Counted from the first letter of the stretch, positions 23,896-61,263 are shown. The stretch: DNA of 64,000 nucleotides from Minisyncoccota bacterium (GCA_036517655.1 DATDVE010000016.1:2979-66978); one strand, 5' to 3'. Made by a program: numbers and translations. Notes: generated by a model from the letters alone, not told the origin.

Positions 23896-25176
23896 GTGGA
23901 TAGGAAAATTTATATAATTTTAGTAATTACACTTTCACTTAGCGCCCAGGGCGCTAAGTTGACAGGACTAGTTGAGGCGCAGGAGGTTGCGGGGCAGATT
24001 GGGGAGACACAGGCTAAGATTAAACAACTTGAGAGTGAGATTGCTAGTACGGAGAAGGAGCTGACTAAAACAGAGCGGGAGAAAAATACACTCTCGAATG
24101 CGGTAAAGAGTCTTGACTTGACTAAGAAGAAACTCGAGGCAGAGACTAAAATTACAGAGAATAAAGTCGCTCTCACCAGTAGTTCTATTGAGAGTTTGTC
24201 AGAGCAGATAATTGCTCACACGCAAGAAATTGATAAGCGCGTGGGGGATATTGCGATAGTACTGCGTAATATTGCAGGAGCGCTTGACGCAACACCCACT
24301 GAAATCTTTCTGTCTGACTCGAGCATTTCGGAGAAGCTCGATAGTATGTATACACTTGAGCGCTTGCAGAATCGCGTACGCATAGACTTAGAAGAACTCA
24401 AGGCAGTGCGTGTGAAGTTAATCTCTGATAAACAAGAGCTTGAGGAAGCCAGGGAGAAGCTCTTTGCCCTTCGTAGCGAACTCGGCGACAAGCAGAAGCT
24501 CGCCATACAGAATATTGAGAGTAAGAGCAAACTGCTTGCTGATACGAAGAATAAAGAATCTAGTTACAGAACTTTGCTCGACCAAAAGATTGCACAGAAG
24601 GCTGCATTCGAACAAGAGTTGCGTAATTTCGAAACTAAACTGAAGGGGATTGATGTTTCTAAGCTTCCCACGGGAGGAACAGGTATCCTAAGCTGGCCAC
24701 TTGCGAGTGTTTTAGTCACCCAGACGTTCGGCGATACCGAGTTCTCACGTTCGTCTGCTGGCGCTATATACAGAGGCAACGGCCATAACGGCATTGACCT
24801 GCGCGCATCTGTCGGAACTGCTGTATATTCTGCCGGCGGCGGAAAGGTAGCCGGCACGGGCAATACAGATCTCGGTTGTCCTGGAGGGTCGTATGGCAAA
24901 TGGATCTTGATAGACCACGGCAACGGTCTCTCAACTCTATATGCGCATTTATCTTTGCAGAGGGTGAGTACGGGTGAGGATGTTGAGCGCGGAGGCTTGA
25001 TTGGCTACAGTGGCAATACTGGCTACTCCACAGGACCGCATTTACACTTCACCGTTTATGCGTCAGAAGGTGTTAAAATTACTAAGCTGATCAGGGCAGA
25101 CGGTAGTGTCAGCAAGTGTGCTGAAATGCCCGTTTCGCCATTAAATGGCTATCTGAATCCACTATTGTACTTATAA
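23896..25176 (+). CDS. M23 family metallopeptidase with N-terminal coiled coil (EnvC/NlpD-like murein hydrolase factor)
   Basis: Signal peptide, ~250 aa coiled-coil region, LytM motifs (HNGIDL, HLHF). Confidence 0.8.
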   Translation: MDRKIYIILVITLSLSAQGAKLTGLVEAQEVAGQIGETQAKIKQLESEIASTEKELTKTEREKNTLSNAVKSLDLTKKKLEAETKITENKVALTSSSIESLSEQIIAHTQEIDKRVGDIAIVLRNIAGALDATPTEIFLSDSSISEKLDSMYTLERLQNRVRIDLEELKAVRVKLISDKQELEEAREKLFALRSELGDKQKLAIQNIESKSKLLADTKNKESSYRTLLDQKIAQKAAFEQELRNFETKLKGIDVSKLPTGGTGILSWPLASVLVTQTFGDTEFSRSSAGAIYRGNGHNGIDLRASVGTAVYSAGGGKVAGTGNTDLGCPGGSYGKWILIDHGNGLSTLYAHLSLQRVSTGEDVERGGLIGYSGNTGYSTGPHLHFTVYASEGVKITKLIRADGSVSKCAEMPVSPLNGYLNPLLYL

Positions 25177-25180
25177 ATAC

Positions 25181-25465
25181 ATGAACAAAGGCTTCATAAG
25201 CATGATACTCATCTTCGTAGTCCTAATTTTGATTGTGAGTGCCTTCAAGCTCAACTTGGGAGGTTATATGGACGCGAGCCCAGAGCAAGCCCTAGATAGC
25301 AATATAGTGCTTATAATTCAAACAGGGAAGATAGTTTGGTCAGATTACATCAAGGGGCCCTTAGTAACGATTTGGAATGAATACATAGCGCCGTTTGCAA
25401 GGGGTGACTGGCTTTCTAGTTTAAGGAGTAGGGAAGAAGCCCGCACAACCTTGCCACCAGAATAG
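25181..25465 (+). CDS. hypothetical small membrane protein
   Basis: N-terminal TM (ISMILIFVVLILIVSAF), 94 aa; directly downstream of the M23 peptidase. Confidence 0.4.
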   Translation: MNKGFISMILIFVVLILIVSAFKLNLGGYMDASPEQALDSNIVLIIQTGKIVWSDYIKGPLVTIWNEYIAPFARGDWLSSLRSREEARTTLPPE

Positions 25466-25572
25466 ATAGTCCATAATGTCGCAAAAGGTATATTGTGCGA
25501 CGTAGTGCTATATAAGTTATCCACAGTCACTTACTATTACAACACATCTCCCCTCTCTAGATCAGTGGACGT

Positions 25573-26397
25573 TCAGAGCTTCTCTAAAACTTTTTTAGAA
25601 TACTCCAGTAATTGTGCGCGCAGAATTTTATTTGAAGCAAACATAGAATCTTTCCAGCGCAGCTCGCTCTGCTTGTAATCCAGTGGACGACCAAGGAGAT
25701 CAGTGACCTCTCCCCCAGCCTCTCGCAGGATCGCCTCTGGAGCACAAGTGTCCCATTTGCTCAATCGTCTATTGGTAGCAATATAGACATCAGCACTACC
25801 GTCAGAAATTAATCCCAGCGCCACACCTATCCCCGAGGATGGTATACGTTTGCCCACGCTCATGGAATCAATGACTTCATATGAGGGGCGTACCTCGCTA
25901 CTATCTTTCCTGATAATTAGCCTGGCTTCGGATAGTGTCTTAGTAGCACTTACAAATATTTGCCTCCTAGATTCTTGCGCCAAAACAAACGCACCTCGTC
26001 CAACCTCTCCAAAATACAACAGATGTTTGCGTGGCACGTTAACCACACCGAATACTGGCCGACCGTTTCGACATAGTCCTATATGCACGCCGAAACTGTC
26101 ATCGCCCTTGATGTACGACTTAGTGCCATCGAGTGGGTCAATCATCCATACGTCACTAGAATAATCACTCGGAATCTCACTACTCTCTTCAGAAAGAATT
26201 GCGTTGGTGGGGAAGAGCTTGCCAATCGCCTCTCTGGCCATTGCATCCGCCTCTTTGTCGGCAATGGTTACAGGGTTAAAGCGATCGTTCTCTTTACTTT
26301 CTACGTTCAGGTTTCCGCTTTGATATCGCACAAGCAATTCACCAATCTTTTGAGCCAGCTCTATTACCTTGAGATATCTTGGGTCAGATAAGTCCAT
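25573..26397 (-). CDS. inositol monophosphatase family protein (SuhB/CysQ-like)
   Basis: IMPase metal-binding motifs (WMIDPLDGT, EES...). Confidence 0.8.
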   Translation of the reverse strand: MDLSDPRYLKVIELAQKIGELLVRYQSGNLNVESKENDRFNPVTIADKEADAMAREAIGKLFPTNAILSEESSEIPSDYSSDVWMIDPLDGTKSYIKGDDSFGVHIGLCRNGRPVFGVVNVPRKHLLYFGEVGRGAFVLAQESRRQIFVSATKTLSEARLIIRKDSSEVRPSYEVIDSMSVGKRIPSSGIGVALGLISDGSADVYIATNRRLSKWDTCAPEAILREAGGEVTDLLGRPLDYKQSELRWKDSMFASNKILRAQLLEYSKKVLEKL

Positions 26398-26418
26398 ATA
26401 TGTTTGTTATGCTTATAG

Positions 26419-26769
26419 TCACAGCCCCGGGCAATTAGCGGCGGGTGTGAGACCTCTGGCTTCGGCTTGCTCTTTACTCGAGAAATAAATCTTATTTTCT
26501 TCTTTTATTCTGCTCACGCCAGAACAAGAAAGTAGATAATATTTAGTGCCATTCCTTGATGCTACATAATTCTGCACTCCCCCACTCTCTCGAGCGGCTT
26601 GCCCGGCAAGCGTAGCGCCGAGGACTTCTGGTGCAAAGTTCAGTGGCTGCTCAATAACTAGATCTGGTTTATTTTCTTCTATCTTGGATAATCTACCTAA
26701 GCCAAACGAGAAGCTAGCAACTAATATGATAATTATGGGAATGAAGGCTGATTTGAAGCGCTCTTGCAT
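26419..26769 (-). CDS. membrane-anchored protein with C-terminal Ada-like metal-binding (sunset-type) domain
   Basis: N-terminal TM, then a C-terminal segment ([38 protein letters not shown]) matching the Ada N-terminal Zn-binding pattern. Confidence 0.45.
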
Positions 26770-26801
26770 TTTTTTTCGTTTTCTGTATTATATCTCTTAC
26801 T

Positions 26802-27074
26802 ATGGCACATAAGAAGGCCGGCGGGTCAACAAAAAATTTACGCGATTCCAATCCCAAGTACTTGGGCATTAAACTTAGTGACGGCCAAATCGCTAAGTCT
26901 GGTTCTATTATCTTGCGCCAAAGGGGCACAGTGTACCTACCCGGCAGGAACGTAGGCCTTGGTAAAGATCACACAATTTTTGCCCTCAAAGAAGGTCTCG
27001 TAAAATTCGCCACCAAACGCAAAACAAGCTTCACCGGCAAGAGCAAAATCTCCCCCATAGTCAGCGTTGTGTAA
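26802..27074 (+). CDS. rpmA: 50S ribosomal protein L27
   Basis: [12 protein letters not shown]...[14 protein letters not shown] matches L27. Confidence 0.9.
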
Positions 27075-52149: not shown

Positions 52150-55100
52150 TTAAAGTGCTGGGTCCGGGACTGGATCGGGCGCAGGTTCTTGTACGGGCTC
52201 CGCAATAGGCTCGGGTATTGGCTCTGTCACAACCTCCGGCATAACTTCCGGTTCAGAAACAACTTCCGGTTCAGGAATTATGTCTGGCTCGGGAACAATC
52301 TCGGATGCAGTATCAGTGCCGGGATCGATGCTAGCGCCCGAGGCTTCCAGAAGAGATTTAAATTCATTTCTGGTAACACAGATGTCTTCAACGCAAAGCT
52401 TATCAGTTACAACTTCGTCAGCTTCTAATCTCTTAACTCGCAGAGTTCCACTTTCGTCTATAGACCAGTTACTCGAATCTTTTTTAATTGAGTCGGCAAC
52501 AGTAAGTTGTGCGGGTGAAGCTTGATTCCGCAGATTAACGAAGACAAGCACCTTGCCCTCTTTTTCTGGTTCGTTATTCCAATCTTCAAGAGCCACCCCG
52601 AGAGCCGCCTCGCCCTCATTCGCCTTTTTACCAACGCCAGGCTCACTACCAGCGGATACCCAGTCGCCCTTAGAGATAGGCCCGTTATCGAGATTAACCT
52701 TAACGGGCACACGACCAACTAATGCGATGATCGGCCTCGTTGAAGTACCCTGCCTGCCCGGACCAATGATGACATCGGAGCCATTTATACCTATTGCTGG
52801 AGCCGTAGAAACTACACCTATAAGAACCTCGTCATGAATACCTTTATGCAGAACAGCCTTATCGACTACCCCTGTGTCAAGCGAGGCAATGTCACCCGCC
52901 TCCATGACTTCAGACGCCGGATATCGCTCGCCAATATCGAAGACTTCACCAATATCGTCCGCATCTGGCGTCTGATCAGAAGTGTCAACAGCGAGACCAC
53001 CCATTGACAAACCAGCACCAGAGATCGGACACGAAGTCCCCGCCGTAATACAAACCGCACCTTGAACAACCAGACCGCCCGCGTCCAAAGTCGCCGTTGT
53101 AGTACCAATCCTTACTAAACCATTGTTTTTCTGCACAGACAAATATCTATCGCCAACGGCGAATATCTGCCCATCCGATGGCGATGTCGTACCCACAGAA
53201 AGAATGCCGGCAAATGTAGAGGTAGCAATCGTGCTCGTGGCAAAATATTTATCCGCGACCACGCCACTCTCCCCCACAACAGAAAGTGACGCGTATGGTG
53301 AAGTAGTGCTGATGCCCAAGTATCCACTGCTAGTGAGCCGCATCCACTCGGTTAAACCCACCGATGAATTCTTGGTAGAGAACGTGAGAACACTTTTTGG
53401 AGACGTAGTTGATGTGTTTGTCAGCACACCAGCAATCCTCGCCGTGGTACTGCTCGTCGTAGCATTATCCTGCACAGAGAAGGTCAGTGCTGAACCGATG
53501 CCCGACGCTACCCCCAGAGAGGAGGTGGCCATATGGCCTATATCAAGCGCGTCGCTCACGCTGTTACGAAATGTGTCCGAGATGGTAGAACGCAACGAGG
53601 GGAAGATGGCAATGGTGCTTGTAGAATAGGTACTGAATATGCCTGGTCCGTATGAGCCGATGCCCCCGCCCCCAACTGTTAGGCCAGAGCCGACATACAA
53701 CCTGCCCCCAACCGTAAGTCCGTTGATAACACTTGCCGCACCCGCTTCAAGGTTGTGGGCCACAACGGATTGGGCTTCAATGCCGGTGGTGTCGAAAATA
53801 TGAAGAGCACTCTCGGCCGAAATAAGGTACCTGCCCATAAGGGCGATACCGTGTCCGGTTGCAGCATCTGCTTCATTAGTAGAGCCAATCTGCCGTGGAT
53901 TATAGGGATCGGATATGTCATAGGCACGAATTGCGTTAGTGAACCCGCCACCTAAGTGGAATGATACGTACATGTATTTCCCGGCAATGATTAAACGCTC
54001 TGCGTCTGCGCCTACTTCTACTCCACCTATTTCTACTGGGGAATTAATGTTTTGTATGTCAAAAATTCTTATTTCATTGGCCCCGGCGTTGGCGGCGGTC
54101 GTCACATAGGCGTAACGCCCCCGGACCTCTATCTGCGTAGCACTCGCATTAACGTCAAGTGACCCAACTTTTTTAAGTAAATTGGGATTTGTAATGTCGT
54201 ATATACCTACATCACCTCCAAATAGGCTAGAGAAAAGGTACTTGCCAAACACTTCCACTTTTTGTTGAGCATTTGATTCATTGATCCCACTTACAAAAAC
54301 CGGATTCGCTGGATTCGTAATATCGTAAACCATAATATCCTGCGACAAACTATCGCTTCCAGCAACAAACAGTAATCCACCGGATACAACAGCATCTCTA
54401 ATTATATTTGATCCACCAGTATCAATCCCTCCTATTTTGATAGGTATTCTTGGATTTGACATGTCCCATATTTCGAGATCGTCACCGCTAACGGTGCCAT
54501 ATGAAATGTAGGCATAATGTCCGTACGAACTAAAATTGTTCGGGGCTGCTGCTATACTTGTGGTACTAACCAAAGTGGTGCTTGCCGTTGGGGAAATCTC
54601 GTACACAACTAACTCACCGTTAACTGTCGCACCAAATAAGTATCGACCAAAGGTGCTCATATGGGTGAGGCGACTTGTTCCTGTTGGAAGTGCTACCGTA
54701 TCCAACAATATCATCGTACTTGTCGTAGCCGTGTCGCCGAGCATTTGAATTATATTGCCAGCGGTGACAGAAAGAGCTGACATGGGCGTTGTCGTGCTAA
54801 TGCCCACTTTGGTAGCGCCTGCGGGATATATGGCGGTTAAGTCAACACTTGACGTGGCCCATTTGGAAATAGAAGTGGCGGGAATTGTACCTACGCACAC
54901 ACTATTTATTGCGAAGCAACCCCTGCCGGCAGATAAGTTAATGCCGTTGGCAAATGTTGATGTCGCAGTACTGACAGAGGCCAGAGCTGATGTCGTGGCC
55001 CAGCCTGATACGATTAGGTTGGTGGTAGAAGCAAGATTATAGACGTTTAGATTACTTGTCGTAGCCGCAATGGCGAAAAGCTTGATAAAGCTTGAGGTGG

Positions 55101-56337
55101 CCATCGTGCCTGTCGCTTCGTAATGATCAGCTACTACCCCCGTTGAACCCACCACCGAGAGAGCGGCGTATGGAGAAGTGGTACCGATGCCAATGTTGCC
55201 GCTAGTGGCAATTCTAAACCATTCTGTTGTTACGGCCGTGTTCTCGTTTATTTGCCCAAAAGTAAATGGCTTCGCAATGCTGGAACCAAAGAAGCCGGTT
55301 AAGAATGCTTGTCGATCTGCCGTATTAAGAATAATCAATCGATCGTAATTTGATGGATCTGCCACAAAATCTGTGCCGAAAAGATCTATGAACGTCTTTT
55401 CCGCACCGATGCCCCACGTCGCTGCCGTGGGTGTGCCCTTTGGGAGAACACGCCAGACCCCTGCAGTATTGGCATCTACGGGTTGGTTCGTTATAGTGGC
55501 ATACCCAGCTCCTGCGGAGGCGGCCTTGATCGTAAATTGACTATTGAGTTGAAGCTGGTCGTTGGCATCGTCCCAGATAAAATTGGCATCTGATGAGAGA
55601 TTTGAAGCTGTAGTCCAGAAGGCAGCACGGTTGGCCGCACCCGAACCAGTTATACCAGACCCACCCACGCAAGTGCCATTAATCGCGAAGCAACCAGCCG
55701 CTAAGTTCACTCCGTTTGCAATTTGAGTGGTTGTTGCTCCCGATACATGTAAACGGGTGGTGGTGGCCGCCGTGCCTGTGGCGTTGATAAACGAAAAGTA
55801 CTGGATTGTAGAGGAGGCGGTCACAAGCAGTCCACCGGTTGAAGTGCCCACTATATCGGAACGTATAAACCCGTCCGAATCAATTCCATCAAGTCTGTCA
55901 GCCTCGAAGGCAGCGGGCACAGTGCCGAATTGCTTGCGTGGGGTCATCTCATTGTCCCAAACTGGAGTAGAACTCGTCCCACCAATACTCACGCCTAGGT
56001 ACAAATCCTGATTATAGTTTAGCGACGAGAGAGAGGTGATATCACCGAGCAACACAGAGAACAAGCCATTCGTTACCGTAACTGCTGTGGTTGTAGATGT
56101 GTGCACTTCGGTCCAAAGGGCACCTCCCCCAGAAGATGCCGTATAAATGCGGAAGATTATATTGTAGTCACCGTCGCCCACAAGAACCCCACTTGAGTCT
56201 GTGAGTTTGCCTTGATAGTTGATTTCTTTGTTAAAACTTGAAGTGGCAGCAGATGCGCTTCGCACAAGTGCAAAAGTCAAAAAGCAAAGTGCAAAAGTGC
56301 AAGTCAAAATTTTAAATTTTGGACTGAAATTTTTCAT
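52150..56337 (-). CDS. giant cell-surface protein (1395 aa): signal peptide, Thr/Ser/Gly/Ala-rich fibrous regions, LVIVD-type beta-propeller repeats, Pro/Glu-rich C-terminal tail
   Basis: Signal peptide MKNFSPKFKILTCTFALCFLTFALVRSASA. Repeats of the form YAYV...G..I.DI.NP..P..VG (LVIVD-like). C-terminal PEPEVVSEPEVMPEVVTEPIPEP. ATGA overlap with the upstream gene. Confidence 0.75.
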   Translation of the reverse strand: MKNFSPKFKILTCTFALCFLTFALVRSASAATSSFNKEINYQGKLTDSSGVLVGDGDYNIIFRIYTASSGGGALWTEVHTSTTTAVTVTNGLFSVLLGDITSLSSLNYNQDLYLGVSIGGTSSTPVWDNEMTPRKQFGTVPAAFEADRLDGIDSDGFIRSDIVGTSTGGLLVTASSTIQYFSFINATGTAATTTRLHVSGATTTQIANGVNLAAGCFAINGTCVGGSGITGSGAANRAAFWTTASNLSSDANFIWDDANDQLQLNSQFTIKAASAGAGYATITNQPVDANTAGVWRVLPKGTPTAATWGIGAEKTFIDLFGTDFVADPSNYDRLIILNTADRQAFLTGFFGSSIAKPFTFGQINENTAVTTEWFRIATSGNIGIGTTSPYAALSVVGSTGVVADHYEATGTMATSSFIKLFAIAATTSNLNVYNLASTTNLIVSGWATTSALASVSTATSTFANGINLSAGRGCFAINSVCVGTIPATSISKWATSSVDLTAIYPAGATKVGISTTTPMSALSVTAGNIIQMLGDTATTSTMILLDTVALPTGTSRLTHMSTFGRYLFGATVNGELVVYEISPTASTTLVSTTSIAAAPNNFSSYGHYAYISYGTVSGDDLEIWDMSNPRIPIKIGGIDTGGSNIIRDAVVSGGLLFVAGSDSLSQDIMVYDITNPANPVFVSGINESNAQQKVEVFGKYLFSSLFGGDVGIYDITNPNLLKKVGSLDVNASATQIEVRGRYAYVTTAANAGANEIRIFDIQNINSPVEIGGVEVGADAERLIIAGKYMYVSFHLGGGFTNAIRAYDISDPYNPRQIGSTNEADAATGHGIALMGRYLISAESALHIFDTTGIEAQSVVAHNLEAGAASVINGLTVGGRLYVGSGLTVGGGGIGSYGPGIFSTYSTSTIAIFPSLRSTISDTFRNSVSDALDIGHMATSSLGVASGIGSALTFSVQDNATTSSTTARIAGVLTNTSTTSPKSVLTFSTKNSSVGLTEWMRLTSSGYLGISTTSPYASLSVVGESGVVADKYFATSTIATSTFAGILSVGTTSPSDGQIFAVGDRYLSVQKNNGLVRIGTTTATLDAGGLVVQGAVCITAGTSCPISGAGLSMGGLAVDTSDQTPDADDIGEVFDIGERYPASEVMEAGDIASLDTGVVDKAVLHKGIHDEVLIGVVSTAPAIGINGSDVIIGPGRQGTSTRPIIALVGRVPVKVNLDNGPISKGDWVSAGSEPGVGKKANEGEAALGVALEDWNNEPEKEGKVLVFVNLRNQASPAQLTVADSIKKDSSNWSIDESGTLRVKRLEADEVVTDKLCVEDICVTRNEFKSLLEASGASIDPGTDTASEIVPEPDIIPEPEVVSEPEVMPEVVTEPIPEPIAEPVQEPAPDPVPDPAL

Positions 56338-58658
56338 TTTGCAGTCTGCATTTTTAATTCCTGCGACGAGTTGCCTATTATGATATCTCCCGATAAAACT
56401 CCTTTTGGCAAATTGAGCTCCTCGGATCTGTGCACGCGGCGATATGATCCGTCCGCCTGTTTGGCATCAATGGTGATGTAATAGTCCCCAGGAGAAACAA
56501 GCATGTAGAATCGGCCGAACTCATCCGCAACTACGCGCTTCACTTCTTGGTTTAAGTTAGACATGAAGATTCTAACAATGGCGAAGGAATATGGTTCCCC
56601 GCTTTCAGCGTCCTTTATCATCACAGCCCTCCACGAACTTCTCCAATAGGTCTGAACTAAGAAAATTATAATGTAGAGAGATAACACGACAAAATTGAAG
56701 GTTCCGGGCGACAGCAATGTAGCCAAGAGGGTGAAAACGAAACCAACTATATACAAAACATCGAATATTATTGATTTGATCTTCTCACGTCTTGAGTAGA
56801 GGCGATACAGCTTTTGCTTACTCTTCACAAATTCGTTCCAGTCGAAACCTTCCGGATCAAGGGGAATATTGCGTGTTATCACTTCTCCCGAAGCGGTGAG
56901 CAACTGTTCTCCGTGATAGAGATTGCCGTAGAGTTCGTCTGAATCATGCCTGGCGAGAGCCTTGGACGGGAATGAGTAATGGGTTTTGCCGGCCTCGATT
57001 GTATATTTACCAGAAGGGAGCAGGAAACCGTAACGGCCATCTAGGTCCGTGATAGCATCGGCAATATCTTTGCCATCTTGCTTTACAACGACATAGGCAG
57101 GGTCAAGAGGTCGCTTGGTGACAGAATCATACACAGTTCCCCAGGGCTTATGCTTGCGTCGCAAACCGAGGAAACCCAGTATCGCACCGAAGAATCGCAT
57201 GATCAAAAGGTAAAGATCATAAGCGGAGCTCACATTGGTGGAAACCACGATTATCTGTGTCAATCCTGATATGAGACCAATTGCAGAACCGACAGGGAGA
57301 TAATCTTCGGCATCCGCGAAGCCAGAAAGTGGCGCCGCGCCTTTGTCGACAAATACAGCGCCACGCACCTCGGCTAATTTTGCACGAGAGTGGTCCAACA
57401 CATAAATATTGACCGAGTACTCACCCGCATCTAGCAGTGGTCCAATAGTTGCCTCATACCTTGATTTCTCTTCATCTACCCGAAGAAGAAAAGAGAAGAT
57501 CTTATCCTTGTCTCTCGGATGACGCATAGTTACTGCTATGGTCTTCAGAACCTCCGGCAAGTTATCATAAGATATGTACAAGGTTGTACTTTCTGTCCCA
57601 CCTAGCGAGATTCTGGATCCCTCCGCAAACTCTTTCTCTGTATCGCCCTGCTTGAAGATAAAAGTGAGATTCTGCAATTCAGGCGGTAAATCCTTGGCAA
57701 TCGGTAAACTGTCGAATATGTCGGGTACTGTTACTGGGAGTTCCGTCTCTTCGTCAGGTTCTTCGTCAAGTTCGTCGTCGGGTTCGGGTAGGATGTCCTC
57801 ACCGGGAATAGTTTCAGAAGCAATTGCGCCAGACGAATAATTGCCGCCATCATCTCTTGTGAAAATTGTGTAGTAGTAAGTGACTCCTTCTGCAACTCCA
57901 CTATCTTCGAAAAACTCCCCACTACCTTCATAGATCACCTCTCCATCCTCCGGGTCATCAATGAAGAAAGTCGTTGACCTTACGATACGAACGACAGAGA
58001 AATCTGGATCACTCGGATTCTCCCAAGAGAGCAGCACCGCGGATTCGGAGACGTCGTATACGGCAGTAAAGTTTGCCGGGTTAGCTGGAGTCTCGTCAGT
58101 CGCGAATCCTTCCGTATCAAACGAGTGGCCGAGCGAACTCGTAGAATTATCAGGATTACCCGCTTCATACGCGGCTATCTTGAAGAAATATGGAGTCCCC
58201 GGTGACAAGTCCTCAATCGTAAACAAGTGAGTGGTAGCTGGTACAAATTCAGCCATACTGCCAAGTTCATAGTCAAGTGTCTCTCCCCAAGATAGTATGG
58301 AGTAAGCAAGAAGATTTGTATTCCATGAAACTGGAACGCTCGAAGTACCTACAACGAACTCCACGTCACTTATCTCAAGCTGCTGCCCGCTTCCACCCCC
58401 TCCTCCCCCGCCGCCCCCACCTCCACCGCCTCCACCATCTATCGGACAATCACTTGGGCAGTTAGTCGAGGTCTCCCCAATCCCCGCTTGGCAAACTGAA
58501 TTCTGATTACAGAAATTTACTGTGGCATTCACATTTAGGTTATCGGTCGCCGCATGAGCGGAAAATTCTAAACCCCAAACCCCAAACCCCAACAAAATCA
58601 CAAGTACCAAAATCCCAGATTTGAACTTTGAACTTTGCGTTTTGCGTTCTGCTCTCAT
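56334..58658 (-). CDS. large envelope protein (774 aa): signal peptide, poly-Gly tract, two FN3-like domains, 4 TM helices with two carboxypeptidase-regulatory-like beta-sandwich domains
   Basis: Signal peptide, a G16 run, FN3-like segments (PGTPYFFKIAAYEAGN; VTYYYTIFTRDDGGN), TM helices, repeated DGRYGF / FGRFYM beta-sandwich signatures. Confidence 0.7.
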   Translation of the reverse strand: MRAERKTQSSKFKSGILVLVILLGFGVWGLEFSAHAATDNLNVNATVNFCNQNSVCQAGIGETSTNCPSDCPIDGGGGGGGGGGGGGGGSGQQLEISDVEFVVGTSSVPVSWNTNLLAYSILSWGETLDYELGSMAEFVPATTHLFTIEDLSPGTPYFFKIAAYEAGNPDNSTSSLGHSFDTEGFATDETPANPANFTAVYDVSESAVLLSWENPSDPDFSVVRIVRSTTFFIDDPEDGEVIYEGSGEFFEDSGVAEGVTYYYTIFTRDDGGNYSSGAIASETIPGEDILPEPDDELDEEPDEETELPVTVPDIFDSLPIAKDLPPELQNLTFIFKQGDTEKEFAEGSRISLGGTESTTLYISYDNLPEVLKTIAVTMRHPRDKDKIFSFLLRVDEEKSRYEATIGPLLDAGEYSVNIYVLDHSRAKLAEVRGAVFVDKGAAPLSGFADAEDYLPVGSAIGLISGLTQIIVVSTNVSSAYDLYLLIMRFFGAILGFLGLRRKHKPWGTVYDSVTKRPLDPAYVVVKQDGKDIADAITDLDGRYGFLLPSGKYTIEAGKTHYSFPSKALARHDSDELYGNLYHGEQLLTASGEVITRNIPLDPEGFDWNEFVKSKQKLYRLYSRREKIKSIIFDVLYIVGFVFTLLATLLSPGTFNFVVLSLYIIIFLVQTYWRSSWRAVMIKDAESGEPYSFAIVRIFMSNLNQEVKRVVADEFGRFYMLVSPGDYYITIDAKQADGSYRRVHRSEELNLPKGVLSGDIIIGNSSQELKMQTAK

Positions 58659-59401
58659 ATCGCAATCGCTGTTACAATTATATGTGCCGAGTAGCTGCCA
58701 GCGGCTTGATTTGCGGTAGCCTCCGCCTCTGCCTCGAACCGAACAGTCGTGTTTGTCCCCGTGGGGTGATTGCCAGAGATGCCCTTGCCGACAAGTTTGT
58801 TAGTGGTAGTTATAGAGTCCCAACATGCAGAAACTGCGTCAGAAGTGCCCACACCACAGGCAGTCCCGTTATCTTTATACGTACTCCATATATCTGCGCC
58901 CTCTGGACTGAAACCGAATTCGGAGTTACCGATACCAATTGTCCAAGTATAGTCTGGCAGAGAGCCTGAAGGAGTATAGTTGGCGAAGAAATTCGCTCCC
59001 GACTGCATGGCGGGGCTTGAGTCCGCCTTTATGTAGAGAGTATAGCCGGTGGGATTATCAGTAGTGACAGTCCAGACAGCCGAGCCGTATGCAGCCCCTC
59101 CCTGGAGAGTTGTGATAACAGGCAGGAGATTAACGTCAGACGGAGTAGACAGCGAGATATAGCCATCACTCTGTTGATAGCCGGCCTCTAGAGCATAGTT
59201 TGTACTTGTGCCCCGACCTGTACTCACCTCTCCTCCAGTATCCTCGAGCGAGAAGTTTGCTGACGTGGATCTAGACCCGGCGAAATTGATACTGTCACGT
59301 TCAATTATATAGTTCGTGCTACTCGCTGCTATGGCCAAGACGTTGCGGGCAGGAGCGGCGATGAAGAGGACGACGGTCAAGATTGTGAACAGAGTTTTCA
59401 T
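58655..59401 (-). CDS. secreted Ser/Thr/Gly-rich surface protein, WxL-like
   Basis: Signal peptide MKTLFTILTVVLFIAAPARNVLA. W-x-(V/I) motifs (AVWTVTTDNP, YTWTIGIG) reminiscent of WxL domains. ATGA overlaps on both sides. Confidence 0.5.
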   Translation of the reverse strand: MKTLFTILTVVLFIAAPARNVLAIAASSTNYIIERDSINFAGSRSTSANFSLEDTGGEVSTGRGTSTNYALEAGYQQSDGYISLSTPSDVNLLPVITTLQGGAAYGSAVWTVTTDNPTGYTLYIKADSSPAMQSGANFFANYTPSGSLPDYTWTIGIGNSEFGFSPEGADIWSTYKDNGTACGVGTSDAVSACWDSITTTNKLVGKGISGNHPTGTNTTVRFEAEAEATANQAAGSYSAHIIVTAIAI

Positions 59402-60282
59402 TTCTTGCGAATGATTCTTACGATCTTCACAATCACTAACACGCCAACCAGAACTATAAGCAGCAATTTCCACGGGATAACCCAGAAGCTCACAACTTCC
59501 TCACCCTTAACCTCCCCACTCGCGTCAATCAAACTTAGACTGGCACTGTAGCGACCAATCAGAAACTTTGAGCCAATTGTATCAACGCGTGATCGTGTCG
59601 CATCTGGCAACACAAACCATGAGGAGATCACTCTCTCATCGGAAGTCAGTCCCAGTGAATTCTTGAGAACTAGCTTCCCGGAGAGTTTCGAGTGAACGTC
59701 CCCCGAGTTAGAGTAGGTTGTCACAAGAGCGACTGGGCCAGAAGACAGCAACTTATCACCACTTGCCACTCCAAAGGCAAGGACCTTCCCGCTAGAGGTT
59801 AGATTCTGCGTCGTGCCTACAAGCACGGGGACAGCAATGCGACTTGAGAGAGAAGCGCCAGCGCCCGATAGTCCCGAGTCGGCACCTCCGGCAACAGATA
59901 CTGTCACTGCTCCGTATAGGCCCGGCAATATTACACTCTCCGGTAAGTCAATCGTTATCGGCACACTCGCCGTCTGCCTCGCGCCAATCTCGACTGATCG
60001 CAGTGGCGCCTTGAGATATGAGCTAAGTGAGTAACCACTCTTGTCTCCAGAAAGAAGGGCGATCTCGCCGACGGAATCTACTTCTATATCTTCAGCTCCA
60101 ATGGTAAAAATTCGCGCAGTGTCGGATTGGTTAGTAATGGCAATGTTGAATGTCAGCACCTCACCCGCCGATACGTAGAGCTCCTTGTGGGCAGGGCTAA
60201 CTAGAAAACTATCGGAGGCAGCCGAGATAAAACTAGGGAAGAGGAGAACGGAGGCAAAAAATATTATGTACTTAGGTTTCAT
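59398..60282 (-). CDS. DUF916/DUF3324-like cell-surface protein with C-terminal TM anchor and basic tail
   Basis: Signal peptide. N-terminal pattern FLVSPAHKELYVSAGEVLTFNIAITNQSD. C-terminus WVIPWKLLLIVLVGVLVIVKIVRIIRKK, as in Firmicute DUF916 (CscA-like) proteins. Confidence 0.5.
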   Translation of the reverse strand: MKPKYIIFFASVLLFPSFISAASDSFLVSPAHKELYVSAGEVLTFNIAITNQSDTARIFTIGAEDIEVDSVGEIALLSGDKSGYSLSSYLKAPLRSVEIGARQTASVPITIDLPESVILPGLYGAVTVSVAGGADSGLSGAGASLSSRIAVPVLVGTTQNLTSSGKVLAFGVASGDKLLSSGPVALVTTYSNSGDVHSKLSGKLVLKNSLGLTSDERVISSWFVLPDATRSRVDTIGSKFLIGRYSASLSLIDASGEVKGEEVVSFWVIPWKLLLIVLVGVLVIVKIVRIIRKK

Positions 60283-61214
60283 CTCTGATCTACAGGTACA
60301 ATTACAAAAACAAAAGAATCATCCGTCGGACTTCTGAAAACAGGTCTGATCAGACCTGCACTTCTGCTATTGTCCAGCGTAACATCCACTTCGTCAGAGA
60401 ATGCATCTCGCACACTCTGCTTGATTGACTCGTCCGAGACAGCATCACCAGAGCTAGGGCGGACAACGATTCCAAAATTATTACTGCCTTCGGTCGAGGT
60501 ATAGTCAATCAATTCCGAAAGCCTCTCATCAATAATATTTTCCGTAATCGTCCGAACATCGCTCTCTGATAGTCCTTCTCCCGACGAGACAATAGTGGTT
60601 GACGTAGATGTGGAATTTCTGCTCTCCACGACAACGCGCTCCTCTCTCTCCTTCTCGCCAATTATGGGCGAGAGGAACGCGAGCGTCTTGTCCCTGATAG
60701 CAGACGCGAGAGTGGCAATTTTATCCTCAACACTATTTAGAAAACCTAAGTACAGAGCATCAACTTTTCTTCCTAGACTAATACTCGATGCAATGACGTT
60801 CGCAGTTTGATCCACGTCCTGCACCATGAGCCCCACTTCCTGCGAATCTGGTAGGTTGATAGTAAAATACTCACCCGCCGATGGAAGTGCAGGACGACCC
60901 AAAAGATAAAGTGGGACCAGTAGGAGTACGGCAAGGGCGAAATAGGCAAAGACCGGCTTCGCGCGAACCTGCTTATTTACGGAGATCTGATCAGATGGCT
61001 TCGGTGCTGTTGGTACTCTCTTCCCTTCCACGTCGGCTGTGTATTTAGACAATGATGAATAGTCAACGAATCTATCACGACCAACCATGGCCGAGCCGAT
61101 TTTACCGGAGCGGCTAAGCTGTCCGATATAGTCCTTTGTATAGCCAAATAGCACGGCTGCTCGCCTAGACGAGATATAGGTTTTGCCTGAAATTATAAGT
61201 GGCTGCTCCTCCAT
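60279..61214 (-). CDS. membrane-anchored protein with N-terminal cytoplasmic HTH (excisionase/MerR-type) domain and extracytoplasmic C-terminal domain
   Basis: HTH-like YISSRRAAVLFGYTKDYIGQLSRSGKI...GRDRF, then a single TM (VFAYFALAVLLLVPLYLLG) and a ~200 aa outside domain. First gene of the surface operon. Confidence 0.5.
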   Translation of the reverse strand: MEEQPLIISGKTYISSRRAAVLFGYTKDYIGQLSRSGKIGSAMVGRDRFVDYSSLSKYTADVEGKRVPTAPKPSDQISVNKQVRAKPVFAYFALAVLLLVPLYLLGRPALPSAGEYFTINLPDSQEVGLMVQDVDQTANVIASSISLGRKVDALYLGFLNSVEDKIATLASAIRDKTLAFLSPIIGEKEREERVVVESRNSTSTSTTIVSSGEGLSESDVRTITENIIDERLSELIDYTSTEGSNNFGIVVRPSSGDAVSDESIKQSVRDAFSDEVDVTLDNSRSAGLIRPVFRSPTDDSFVFVIVPVDQR

Positions 61215-61263
61215 TCTTGCCTTTAATTATACCGGGCTAGAGAATAATCTGTTAAGCTTAGGT

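Follow-up and report, generated by a model that had tools for sequence, protein, structure and literature searches.

The Pam pili of Ca. Mycosynbacter amalyticus, described in a preprint (Troman et al., bioRxiv 10.64898/2026.03.03.709456), and the WxL/Csc clusters of Lactobacillales and Listeria (Siezen 2006, PMC1534035; Hassan et al. 2023, PMC10599100) are the closest described systems to the locus analyzed here. The Pam system comprises donor-strand-exchange pilins, PapD/FimC-like chaperones that keep a C-terminal transmembrane (TM) helix, the tip protein PamT and PamR, an RbmA-like FnIII protein that has an additional strand at its N terminus and is anchored by a C-terminal TM helix; its operon has a conserved neighbor for a tail-fiber-like protein, and the system, known from one cultured Saccharimonadia parasite, is reported mainly in Saccharimonadia and Microgenomatia (10.64898/2026.03.03.709456). 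In the WxL/Csc clusters, WxLIP is proposed to insert a strand of its DUF916 β-hairpin into the WxL protein, which would stabilize the latter (PMC10599100). The preprint makes no mention of WxL, DUF916 or Paceibacteria, and in the literature that we searched no paper ties WxL or DUF916 to chaperone-usher systems, PapD or Patescibacteria. Here we analyzed five genes, termed P1 to P5, all on the minus strand at positions 52150-61214 of a 64-kb stretch of DNA from a Minisyncoccota bacterium (GCA_036517655.1, DATDVE010000016.1:2979-66978; hereafter the window). The NCBI record of the same contig is entered as "Candidatus Paceibacterota bacterium" (locus tag prefix VJB98). Comparison with the described systems suggests that this operon is probably the form taken in Paceibacteria by the usher-less, Pam-type chaperone/pilin surface-fiber system of the Candidate Phyla Radiation (CPR).

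60279..61214, minus strand: P1, 311 aa, predicted bitopic membrane protein with a helix-turn-helix (HTH) domain, a TM helix, a variable spacer and a C-terminal module
59398..60282, minus strand: P2, 294 aa, predicted membrane-anchored PapD/WxLIP-type chaperone, PamC/PamD-like
58655..59401, minus strand: P3, 248 aa, PamT-like subunit with a signal peptide
56334..58658, minus strand: P4, 774 aa, proposed membrane anchor or base with PamR-like architecture
52150..56337, minus strand: P5, 1395 aa, variable tail-fiber-like putative adhesin with a signal peptide

A first-pass annotation of the window had proposed these five open reading frames (ORFs) and four ATGA junctions between them (60279-82, 59398-401, 58655-58 and 56334-37). 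Direct reading found all of them in place, with the stop TGA of one gene sharing bases with the ATG of the next at each junction, and in the public annotation of this contig (ENA ERZ27254767 k141_1564648) the proteins have identical lengths of 311, 294, 248, 774 and 1395 aa. The overlaps are not the product of misplaced starts. The longest ORF for P3 begins at GTG 59473, and the start was set at ATG 59401 because the signal peptide begins there, M1 is near-invariant across 60 homologs and the public call is 248 aa; on the last two of these grounds, GTG 59473 was rejected as the true start. Since 4-nt overlaps also occur at five further gene pairs within the window, the run of four indicates a tightly packed operon and nothing stranger. 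The internal gene starts lack Shine-Dalgarno sequences, which together with the stop/start overlaps suggests coupled, stoichiometric translation.

P2 is linked to both described systems. It is predicted to consist of a signal peptide, two immunoglobulin (Ig)-like β-sandwich domains (DUF916-like and DUF3324-like), a conserved FWVIPWK motif, a TM helix and a basic tail.

59404-59472, minus strand: C-terminal TM helix of P2, with the basic tail RIIRKK after the helix

The DUF916 model (WxLIP_PGBD) scored P2 alone below the Pfam cut-off (18.9 versus 27.3 bits, E = 1.6e-3), and 13 of the 16 P2-family members matched it. When the P2 family profile was run against PDB sequences, the sole significant match was Enterococcus faecium WxLIP1 (EfmWxLIP1, E = 1.3e-8), which is also the closest solved structure to the P2 model; the predicted P2 fold resembles PapD, FimC and CsuC as well. 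Profile-profile comparison (hhalign) aligned the Paceibacteria P2 subfamily with six Firmicute WxLIPs, which came from WxL clusters annotated on plasmids, at a probability of 98.5% (E = 1.9e-15, 297 columns), and aligned P2 with the Saccharimonadia chaperones at 100% (E = 2.9e-48). All 115 of the 115 Saccharimonadia-type chaperones retrieved were matched by P2, with E values from 6e-36 to 9e-18. Among the Saccharimonadales proteins recovered by the P2-family profile search, one lies in a locus (L087) adjoining ATP synthase genes, with the gene order PamT, pilin, pilin, chaperone, PamR and a 1018-aa giant. The neighbors pass the NCBIfam equivalog cut-offs (PamT, 279 against 240 bits; PamR, 342 against 300; the two pilins, 142-144 against 55), so L087 is a bona fide pam operon, and P2 alone matched its chaperone with E = 5.6e-19. 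P2 thus has both the PapD/FimC-like two-domain architecture with a C-terminal TM helix that marks PamC and PamD and the DUF916 PGBD, DUF3324 HBD and C-terminal TM helix that mark a WxLIP. The first-pass description of P2 as a DUF916/CscA-type protein with a C-terminal TM helix and RIIRKK tail is therefore upheld by the family hidden Markov model (HMM), the structure and the profile comparison, and, judged by sequence comparison, P2 is a true DUF916/WxLIP homolog and a direct homolog of the pam-operon chaperone. A second WxLIP1 entry exists in the PDB (9i25, with EfmWxLIP1 as chain C). In this entry WxLIP1 may be bound to other chains, one of which could be a WxL protein; if it holds WxLIP1 with a partner, it would show directly how WxLIP binds that partner.

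P3 links the locus to the pilus side of the Pam system, at a much greater distance.

59168-59332, minus strand: N-terminal region of P3 (residues 24-78) with three S-x-N-Y/F-x-L-like motifs, low model confidence
58658-59164, minus strand: predicted pilin-like Ig domain of P3 (residues 80-248) with one Cys pair

In the AlphaFold model, residues 80-248 form a β-sandwich with a predicted local distance difference test score above 90, while residues 24-78 are poorly modeled; the modeled Ig domain resembles donor-strand pilins at the level of the fold. We compared P3 with the NCBIfam Pam models of June 2026 (NF058578, PamR; NF058579, PamT; NF058581, CPR_Pam_pilin_C). The PamT model matched P3 with 36.2 bits (E = 4e-9) over residues 4-129 only, against an equivalog cut-off of 240, and it was this match that led us to the Pam preprint. 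The same model was matched by 58 of the 60 P3-family members (best E = 2e-14), none of them near 240 bits, and hhalign aligned the P3 family with verified PamT at 92.9% (E = 3.6e-7, P3 residues 20-137). The comparison of P3 with the two-domain Pam pilin by hhalign was not significant, and CPR_Pam_pilin_C gave weak matches in only 3 of the 60 members. Together, the model and the sequence matches indicate that P3 is a pilin-like Ig subunit and a remote homolog of PamT, not its equivalog.

The first-pass annotation had instead called P3 a WxL-like protein on account of its W-x-V/I motifs. The tripeptides do exist (WTV at 110-112 and WTI at 153-155), but the domain assignment was not borne out: the Pfam WxL model (PF13731) matched 0 of the 60 family members at E ≤ 1, and hhalign against Firmicute WxL alignments built from six plasmid loci (9-11 sequences, full-length and domain-trimmed) returned probabilities of 0.5-1.6%. 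No Pfam family matched P3. A by-eye likeness to WxL (VTTDN..GY.L versus VTDNRG..GW.L, plus a C-terminal Y..T.T strand) was statistically unsupported, and we do not claim it. PDB sequence searches with P3, P4 and P5 gave nothing useful, the P4 matches being noise from the Gly linker and FN3 domains.

The genes were found to belong together well beyond this genome. A pattern scan of one genome per species identified 164 genomes with a P3 relative, and the best 80 loci, from Vogel-, Zambryski-, Lloyd-, Nomura-, Kaiser-, Taylor- and Buchananbacteria and other Paceibacteria, were taken for a census, in which counts were made wherever the flank was long enough. P2 lies immediately upstream of P3 in 74 of 76 loci and P4 downstream of P3 in 63 of 67, so that P2-P3-P4 is an almost invariant triad. 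The P5 N-terminal domain was present within 6 kb downstream in 19 of 38 loci, and P1 upstream of P2 in 29 of 67. In the nearest relatives the whole layout priA / P1 P2 P3 P4 P5 / mreB is kept with the same overlaps, and the P1-P2-P3-P4-P5 order recurs in distant genera; the genes thus form one conserved unit, in agreement with the co-conservation expected from the first-pass reading.

Gene fusions tie P2 to P3 in a further way. A profile search of 1.84 billion cluster representatives (50% identity) returned 2407 P3 relatives, and the best 150 of these include P2-P3 fusions in at least 14 independent clusters (P0140, P0141, P0143-P0145, P0147-P0149, P0157, P0162, P0177, P0251, P0258 and P0261; also loci L020, L048 and L050). 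They are single ORFs of about 520-580 aa in which both the P2 TM helix and the P3 signal peptide are kept. Such an arrangement implies a polyprotein of chaperone, TM helix, signal peptide and pilin that could be split by signal peptidase, and at the sequence level it is a Rosetta-stone link between P2 and P3.

Several variants of P3 were seen in the same searches. One or two additional small pilin-like paralogs, of about 215-240 aa, stand directly upstream of the P2 homolog in about half of the loci (32 of 67, including L008, L019, L022, L024, L026, L027, L040-L042, L045, L049 and L051). They lack the S-x-N-Y motif region and carry, after a signal-peptide end of the form "..EP....A", a classical alternating strand, VTDDV.V.Q.VTS.I.IS. 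The small pilins of related loci gave no matches to the NCBIfam Pam models; because they are devoid of the motif region, the PamT similarity of P3 must sit in its N-terminal motif region. The complete mature P3 module (about residues 25-248) also occurs at the C terminus of large proteins with unrelated N-terminal regions, such as P0171 (2187 aa) and P0264 (1205 aa), and the same architecture is found at about 580-610 aa in P0138, P0142, P0170, P0172, P0196, P0208 and P0265. By analogy, these proteins resemble FimH/PapG adhesins or the Firmicute "large WxL proteins" in architecture. In some of the best 150 relatives, an insert of 200-350 aa separates the N-terminal motif region from the Ig domain.

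P4 occupies the place of PamR, after the chaperone and pilin genes, and shares its general plan.

58443-58550, minus strand: mature N-terminal alternating-hydrophobic strand of P4 (NLNVNATVNF) and 4-Cys knot (residues 37-72)
58392-58436, minus strand: Gly15 linker of P4 (residues 75-89), Ser-Gly next
57300-58367, minus strand: P4 ectodomain, two FN3 domains and an Ig-like region
56337-57299, minus strand: P4 TM helices (hydropathy) interleaved with two CarboxypepD_reg-like domains (Pfam)

The P4 signal peptide is probably cleaved after AHA, and the N-terminal peptide that we regard as a candidate donor strand is ATDNLNVNATVNF. The HMM checks proposed for P4 and P5 all came out above the Pfam cut-offs, in P4 for fn3 (35.6 versus 25 bits) and for CarboxypepD_reg (48.2 versus 32.3 bits, two stretches). 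Of 78 homologs, about 60-70 share the ectodomain and only about 25 have the TM/CarboxypepD_reg module; most homologs are proteins of 420-560 aa with an FN3 ectodomain, a single C-terminal TM helix and a basic tail. The N-terminal strand and a CNNNGICE..SCP.DC motif are conserved among the homologs. Sharing the architecture and operon position of PamR with no sequence similarity to it, P4 is best called analogous, and homology is not claimed. The glycine tract, first given as 16 residues, has 15; its codons are mixed GGN, so it is not a perfect DNA repeat, and the linker site is Gly-rich in close relatives (L001 and L007) and Pro/Thr-rich in distant ones.

P5 resembles the giant that follows PamR in the pam operon.

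55585-56244, minus strand: conserved N-terminal domain of P5, putative fiber base (residues 32-251)
53728-54660, minus strand: LVIVD β-propeller region of P5 (residues about 560-870)
52519-52938, minus strand: conserved C-terminal domain of P5 (residues 1134-1273)
52153-52323, minus strand: PE-rich tail of P5

Searched with phmmer, P5 matched the 1018-aa giant of L087 with E = 9e-23, and the N- and C-terminal domains matched it separately (2e-18 and 1e-10), as expected of a Pam-associated giant tail-fiber-like protein. LVIVD (PF08309) was found in two stretches (39.1 bits against a Pfam gathering threshold of 20.2; best at 732-773), phrog_22523 matched residues 588-834 (E = 2e-23), and the propeller also gave a weak choice-of-anchor B match; the PE-rich tail noted earlier is present, and the fiber modules include two G-I-G-T-T-S-P repeats and spaced Cys pairs. 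Across loci, only the N-terminal 200 aa or so is conserved, its start (FN.QINYQGKLT) being near-invariant in relatives, and the length of the rest varies between about 900 and about 2700 aa. The closest relative (L001:13945-16770) encodes a 941-aa P5 with the same N-terminal domain and a Peptidase_S74 domain, without the LVIVD propeller, which suggests swapping of adhesin modules between close relatives. This modular pattern of the sequence fits a host-recognition fiber.

P1 is a candidate membrane-bound regulator.

61035-61187, minus strand: HTH_17/excisionase-like domain of P1 (residues about 10-60; TIGR01764, and HTH_17 in the family)
60897-60953, minus strand: TM helix of P1 (residues 88-106, hydropathy)
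60282-60482, minus strand: conserved, predicted extracellular β-rich C-terminal module of P1 (residues 245-311), ending in DSFVFVIVPV

TIGR01764 matched P1 alone weakly (E = 2e-3, 18.3 bits against a cut-off of 28.8) and Pfam gave no match to it; at the level of the family, HTH_17 (PF12728) was matched by 13 of 28 members (best E = 2e-9), so that the HTH domain and TM helix of the first-pass annotation probably stand. The N-terminal HTH, the TM helix and the C-terminal module (consensus G-VVVP ... SFSDEV.V..D..G.SGVI.PVFR....D.YLYVLVPV) are conserved in the family and the middle is variable. As P1 has no signal peptide, the HTH must face the cytoplasm and the C-terminal module the outside of the cell. 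The simplest proposal, drawn by analogy, is that P1 is a ToxR-like membrane-tethered regulator; the hydrophobic C-terminal strand may serve a structural role instead of regulation. The Lactobacillus plantarum WxL regulator RwpL was considered as a parallel and rejected, as it is a soluble MarR-type protein, and hhalign of P1 with the gene upstream of the Saccharimonadales pam operon was not significant. Proteins of 118-142 aa that consist only of a P1-type HTH and one TM helix were observed directly upstream of a giant P5-type gene in six Paceibacteria loci, an HTH-TM/giant-adhesin pairing that recurs across all six:

L026:12853-13209, small HTH+TM protein
L041:12207-12581, small HTH+TM protein
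L068:8515-8907, small HTH+TM protein
L069:12111-12539, small HTH+TM protein
L084:13689-14054, small HTH+TM protein
L086:6143-6517, small HTH+TM protein

Taken as a whole, the locus agrees with the Pam system in a homologous chaperone (P2), a single-Ig subunit remotely related to PamT (P3), Sec signal peptides on the secreted parts (P2, P3, P4 and P5 each have one), the absence of an usher, a membrane-anchored FnIII protein with an extra N-terminal strand in the position of PamR (P4), and a protein homologous to the N- and C-terminal domains of the associated giant (P5). It differs in the multipass TM/CarboxypepD_reg module added to P4, in the extra HTH_17-TM gene P1 and in its host lineage, Paceibacteria. 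From these parts a working scheme can be proposed. After Sec export, P2 would stay in the membrane and, by strand complementation, cap P3, whose Ig fold would be incomplete; P3 would then be passed to a donor strand, which could be the mature N-terminal strand of P4 and/or the N-terminal motif region of P3 itself. P4, with its putative donor strand on the Gly15 tether, its FN3 domains and its membrane helices, would tether the P3-containing structure, as proposed for PamR, and P5 would be an exchangeable host-binding fiber. In the most speculative step, P1 would sense assembly or contact as a membrane-tethered regulator. As neither a small classical pilin nor PamA/B-type pilins are encoded here, what is assembled may be a short fibril or stalk instead of a long pilus. 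A host-attachment role, already proposed in the first-pass annotation, remains plausible.

Several points weigh against a Pam-type assignment. The match of P3 to PamT is remote (36 versus 240 bits) and falls mainly in the N-terminal motif region. P4 is without similarity to PamR, having no NCBIfam match and an hhalign probability of 1.9% for its family against PamR, and its CarboxypepD_reg domains are probably, if uncertainly, cytoplasmic by the positive-inside rule. No PamA/B/E pilin (CPR_Pam_pilin_C) is encoded among the five proteins or in the window, and no further P3- or P2-like gene was found there; the window is without a small classical pilin. The locus lies between priA and mreB and not beside ATP synthase genes as in the described operons. 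On inspection of its sequence, P5 has neither a sortase signal nor a TM anchor. P1 has no counterpart in the described Pam system, and its proposed regulatory role is an analogy. Finally, the Pam assembly model is itself largely based on AlphaFold and comes from a preprint (10.64898/2026.03.03.709456).

A static complex of the WxL/Csc type, in which membrane-bound P2 holds P3 non-covalently at the wall and docks P4 and P5 with no polymerization or handover, would account for much of what is seen in P2. The closest solved structure to P2 is WxLIP1, the homology to Firmicute WxLIPs extends over the full length, from the two domains through the TM helix, small secreted β-rich partners and large adhesins are encoded in the same cluster, and WxLIP has been proposed to insert a strand into WxL (PMC10599100). 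Related CPR large proteins carry a C-terminal P3 module much as "large WxL proteins" carry WxL, and there is only one pilin-like gene in the window. This explanation covers P2 and not P3, which is without WxL similarity and matches PamT and donor-strand pilins instead, and P2 itself is much closer to the verified pam chaperone than to WxLIP (E = 2.9e-48 versus 1.9e-15). Furthermore, csc clusters typically hold a small LPXTG protein and a second WxL gene, and the Firmicute comparison clusters do contain small LPXTG-anchored protein and sortase-type genes; here there is no WxL domain (the five-gene cluster does not hold the two or more PF13731 proteins expected of such clusters), no LPXTG protein (no LPxTG motif was found in P2-P5) and no sortase, and the genes belong to a CPR bacterium instead of a Firmicute. 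We therefore consider a static WxL/Csc complex unlikely, and the Csc/WxL reading of the first-pass annotation was half right, sound for P2 and unsupported for P3. The two explanations may describe the same mechanism, and would then not be exclusive, if WxL clusters work in a similar way.

The five genes could also be mere neighbors in a mixed operon, with P2-P3-P4 as a small surface module, P5 as an independent adhesin and P1 as an unrelated membrane-bound regulator. The partial linkage of P1 (29 of 67 loci) and of the P5 N-terminal domain (19 of 38 within 6 kb) would agree with this, as would the huge variability of P5-type giants and the small HTH+TM proteins found elsewhere in such loci. 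Yet all four junctions are 4-nt overlaps with no notable promoter or terminator inside the operon by the scans used, the five-gene order is shared by distant genera, and the Saccharimonadales pam operon likewise has a P5 homolog after its anchor gene; an assembly of unrelated neighbors is accordingly quite improbable. A remnant prophage or tailocin tail-fiber module hardly deserves credence: P5 has tail-fiber-like repeats and a weak Bdello_MAT_N match (22 bits against a cut-off of 60), the P5 of a relative has Peptidase_S74, and the FN3 region of P4 weakly matches the phage "central tail fiber J", yet there are no other phage genes, the housekeeping flanks (priA, def, mreB and frr) are syntenic in relatives, many genera keep the cluster at a chromosomal site, and the phage reading was rejected when PHROGs gave no matches for P1-P3.

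The likeness of P5 to phage tail fibers and Bdellovibrio MAT fibers is one of design: a conserved base at the N terminus precedes repeat and receptor-binding modules that can be exchanged, and in a close relative the protein ends in a Peptidase_S74 chaperone domain; P5 differs from them in its LVIVD propeller, its PE-rich tail and its chromosomal site within a pilus-type operon. From the chaperone-usher pili (Pap, Fim, Csu, CupE and CFA/I) the locus is set apart by the lack of an usher and an outer membrane and by the TM tether of the P2 chaperone. None of the five proteins resembles an usher, the membrane part of P4 being made of predicted α-helical TM segments, and sequence identity to the chaperone-usher proteins is only 5-15%, and any common ancestry is hypothetical.

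Returning to the Pam-type assignment, the kind of system is known from the 2026 preprint and the June 2026 NCBIfam models, while its composition here, its Paceibacteria lineage and its HTH-TM partner are not described there. The first-pass view that the arrangement was undescribed is thus superseded where the CPR Pam operon, with homologs of P2 and P5, is concerned, and still holds for P1, with its HTH and TM helix, and for the multipass/CarboxypepD_reg part that P4 has in addition. The three-way homology of WxLIP, P2 and the Pam chaperone is the most interesting by-product, and its bridges are statistically solid at the level of sequence. We would tentatively raise the possibility, short of an even chance, that the CPR Pam chaperones, Paceibacteria P2 and Firmicute WxLIP are one superfamily of PapD-like chaperones tethered to the membrane, that WxL complexes and Pam pili are branches of an ancient usher-less strand-complementation system, and that the Paceibacteria operon is its minimal form. 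Such a form would need one chaperone, one acceptor subunit, one strand-donating anchor, one exchangeable adhesin and a membrane-spanning HTH protein through which assembly or contact would be signaled to the chromosome. The P2 bridges also suggest a different mechanism for the WxL clusters, which matter in the adhesion of Enterococcus, Listeria and Lactobacillus: these clusters may be strand-complementation systems of the chaperone type.

In Paceibacteria, the largest CPR class, a system related to Pam but made up of partly different components is widespread, as the 164 species genomes and 2407 clusters indicate, and these proteins are all annotated as hypothetical. The locus offers candidate genes for host attachment in organisms without cultured representatives, and the variable P5 and the P2-P3 fusions give handles on host range and assembly, respectively.

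The flanks of the operon are housekeeping genes, with priA and def on one side and mreB, frr and an M50 protease (rseP) on the other. Two further elements lie at its borders.

61226..61255, minus strand: promoter-like site TTAACA-18 nt-TATAAT, 11 nt ahead of the start codon of P1
52120..52137, minus strand: GC-rich hairpin CCTGCC-TGCGCA-GGCAGG, 12 nt past the P5 stop and next to a T-rich stretch, read directly

The first matches 11 of the 12 consensus positions, the best in the region; promoter-like sites are no more numerous there than expected from shuffled sequence, and as the operon promoter this site is suggestive only. The hairpin is a possible operon terminator; the terminator scan did not call it, its T-run being weak. 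A mechanically extended priA ORF (TTG 61183, plus strand) would share 61183-61214 with the 5' end of P1, which lies on the other strand; the public priA call is shorter (501 versus 528 aa), so this overlap is probably an artifact of ORF extension. Elsewhere in the window, the cumulative GC skew peaks near 24-26 kb and falls afterwards, and gene orientation turns near 24000-27000 from mostly plus to mostly minus strand, in a convergent manner. A skew peak with convergent genes at 24-27 kb is the pattern that would be expected at a replication terminus.

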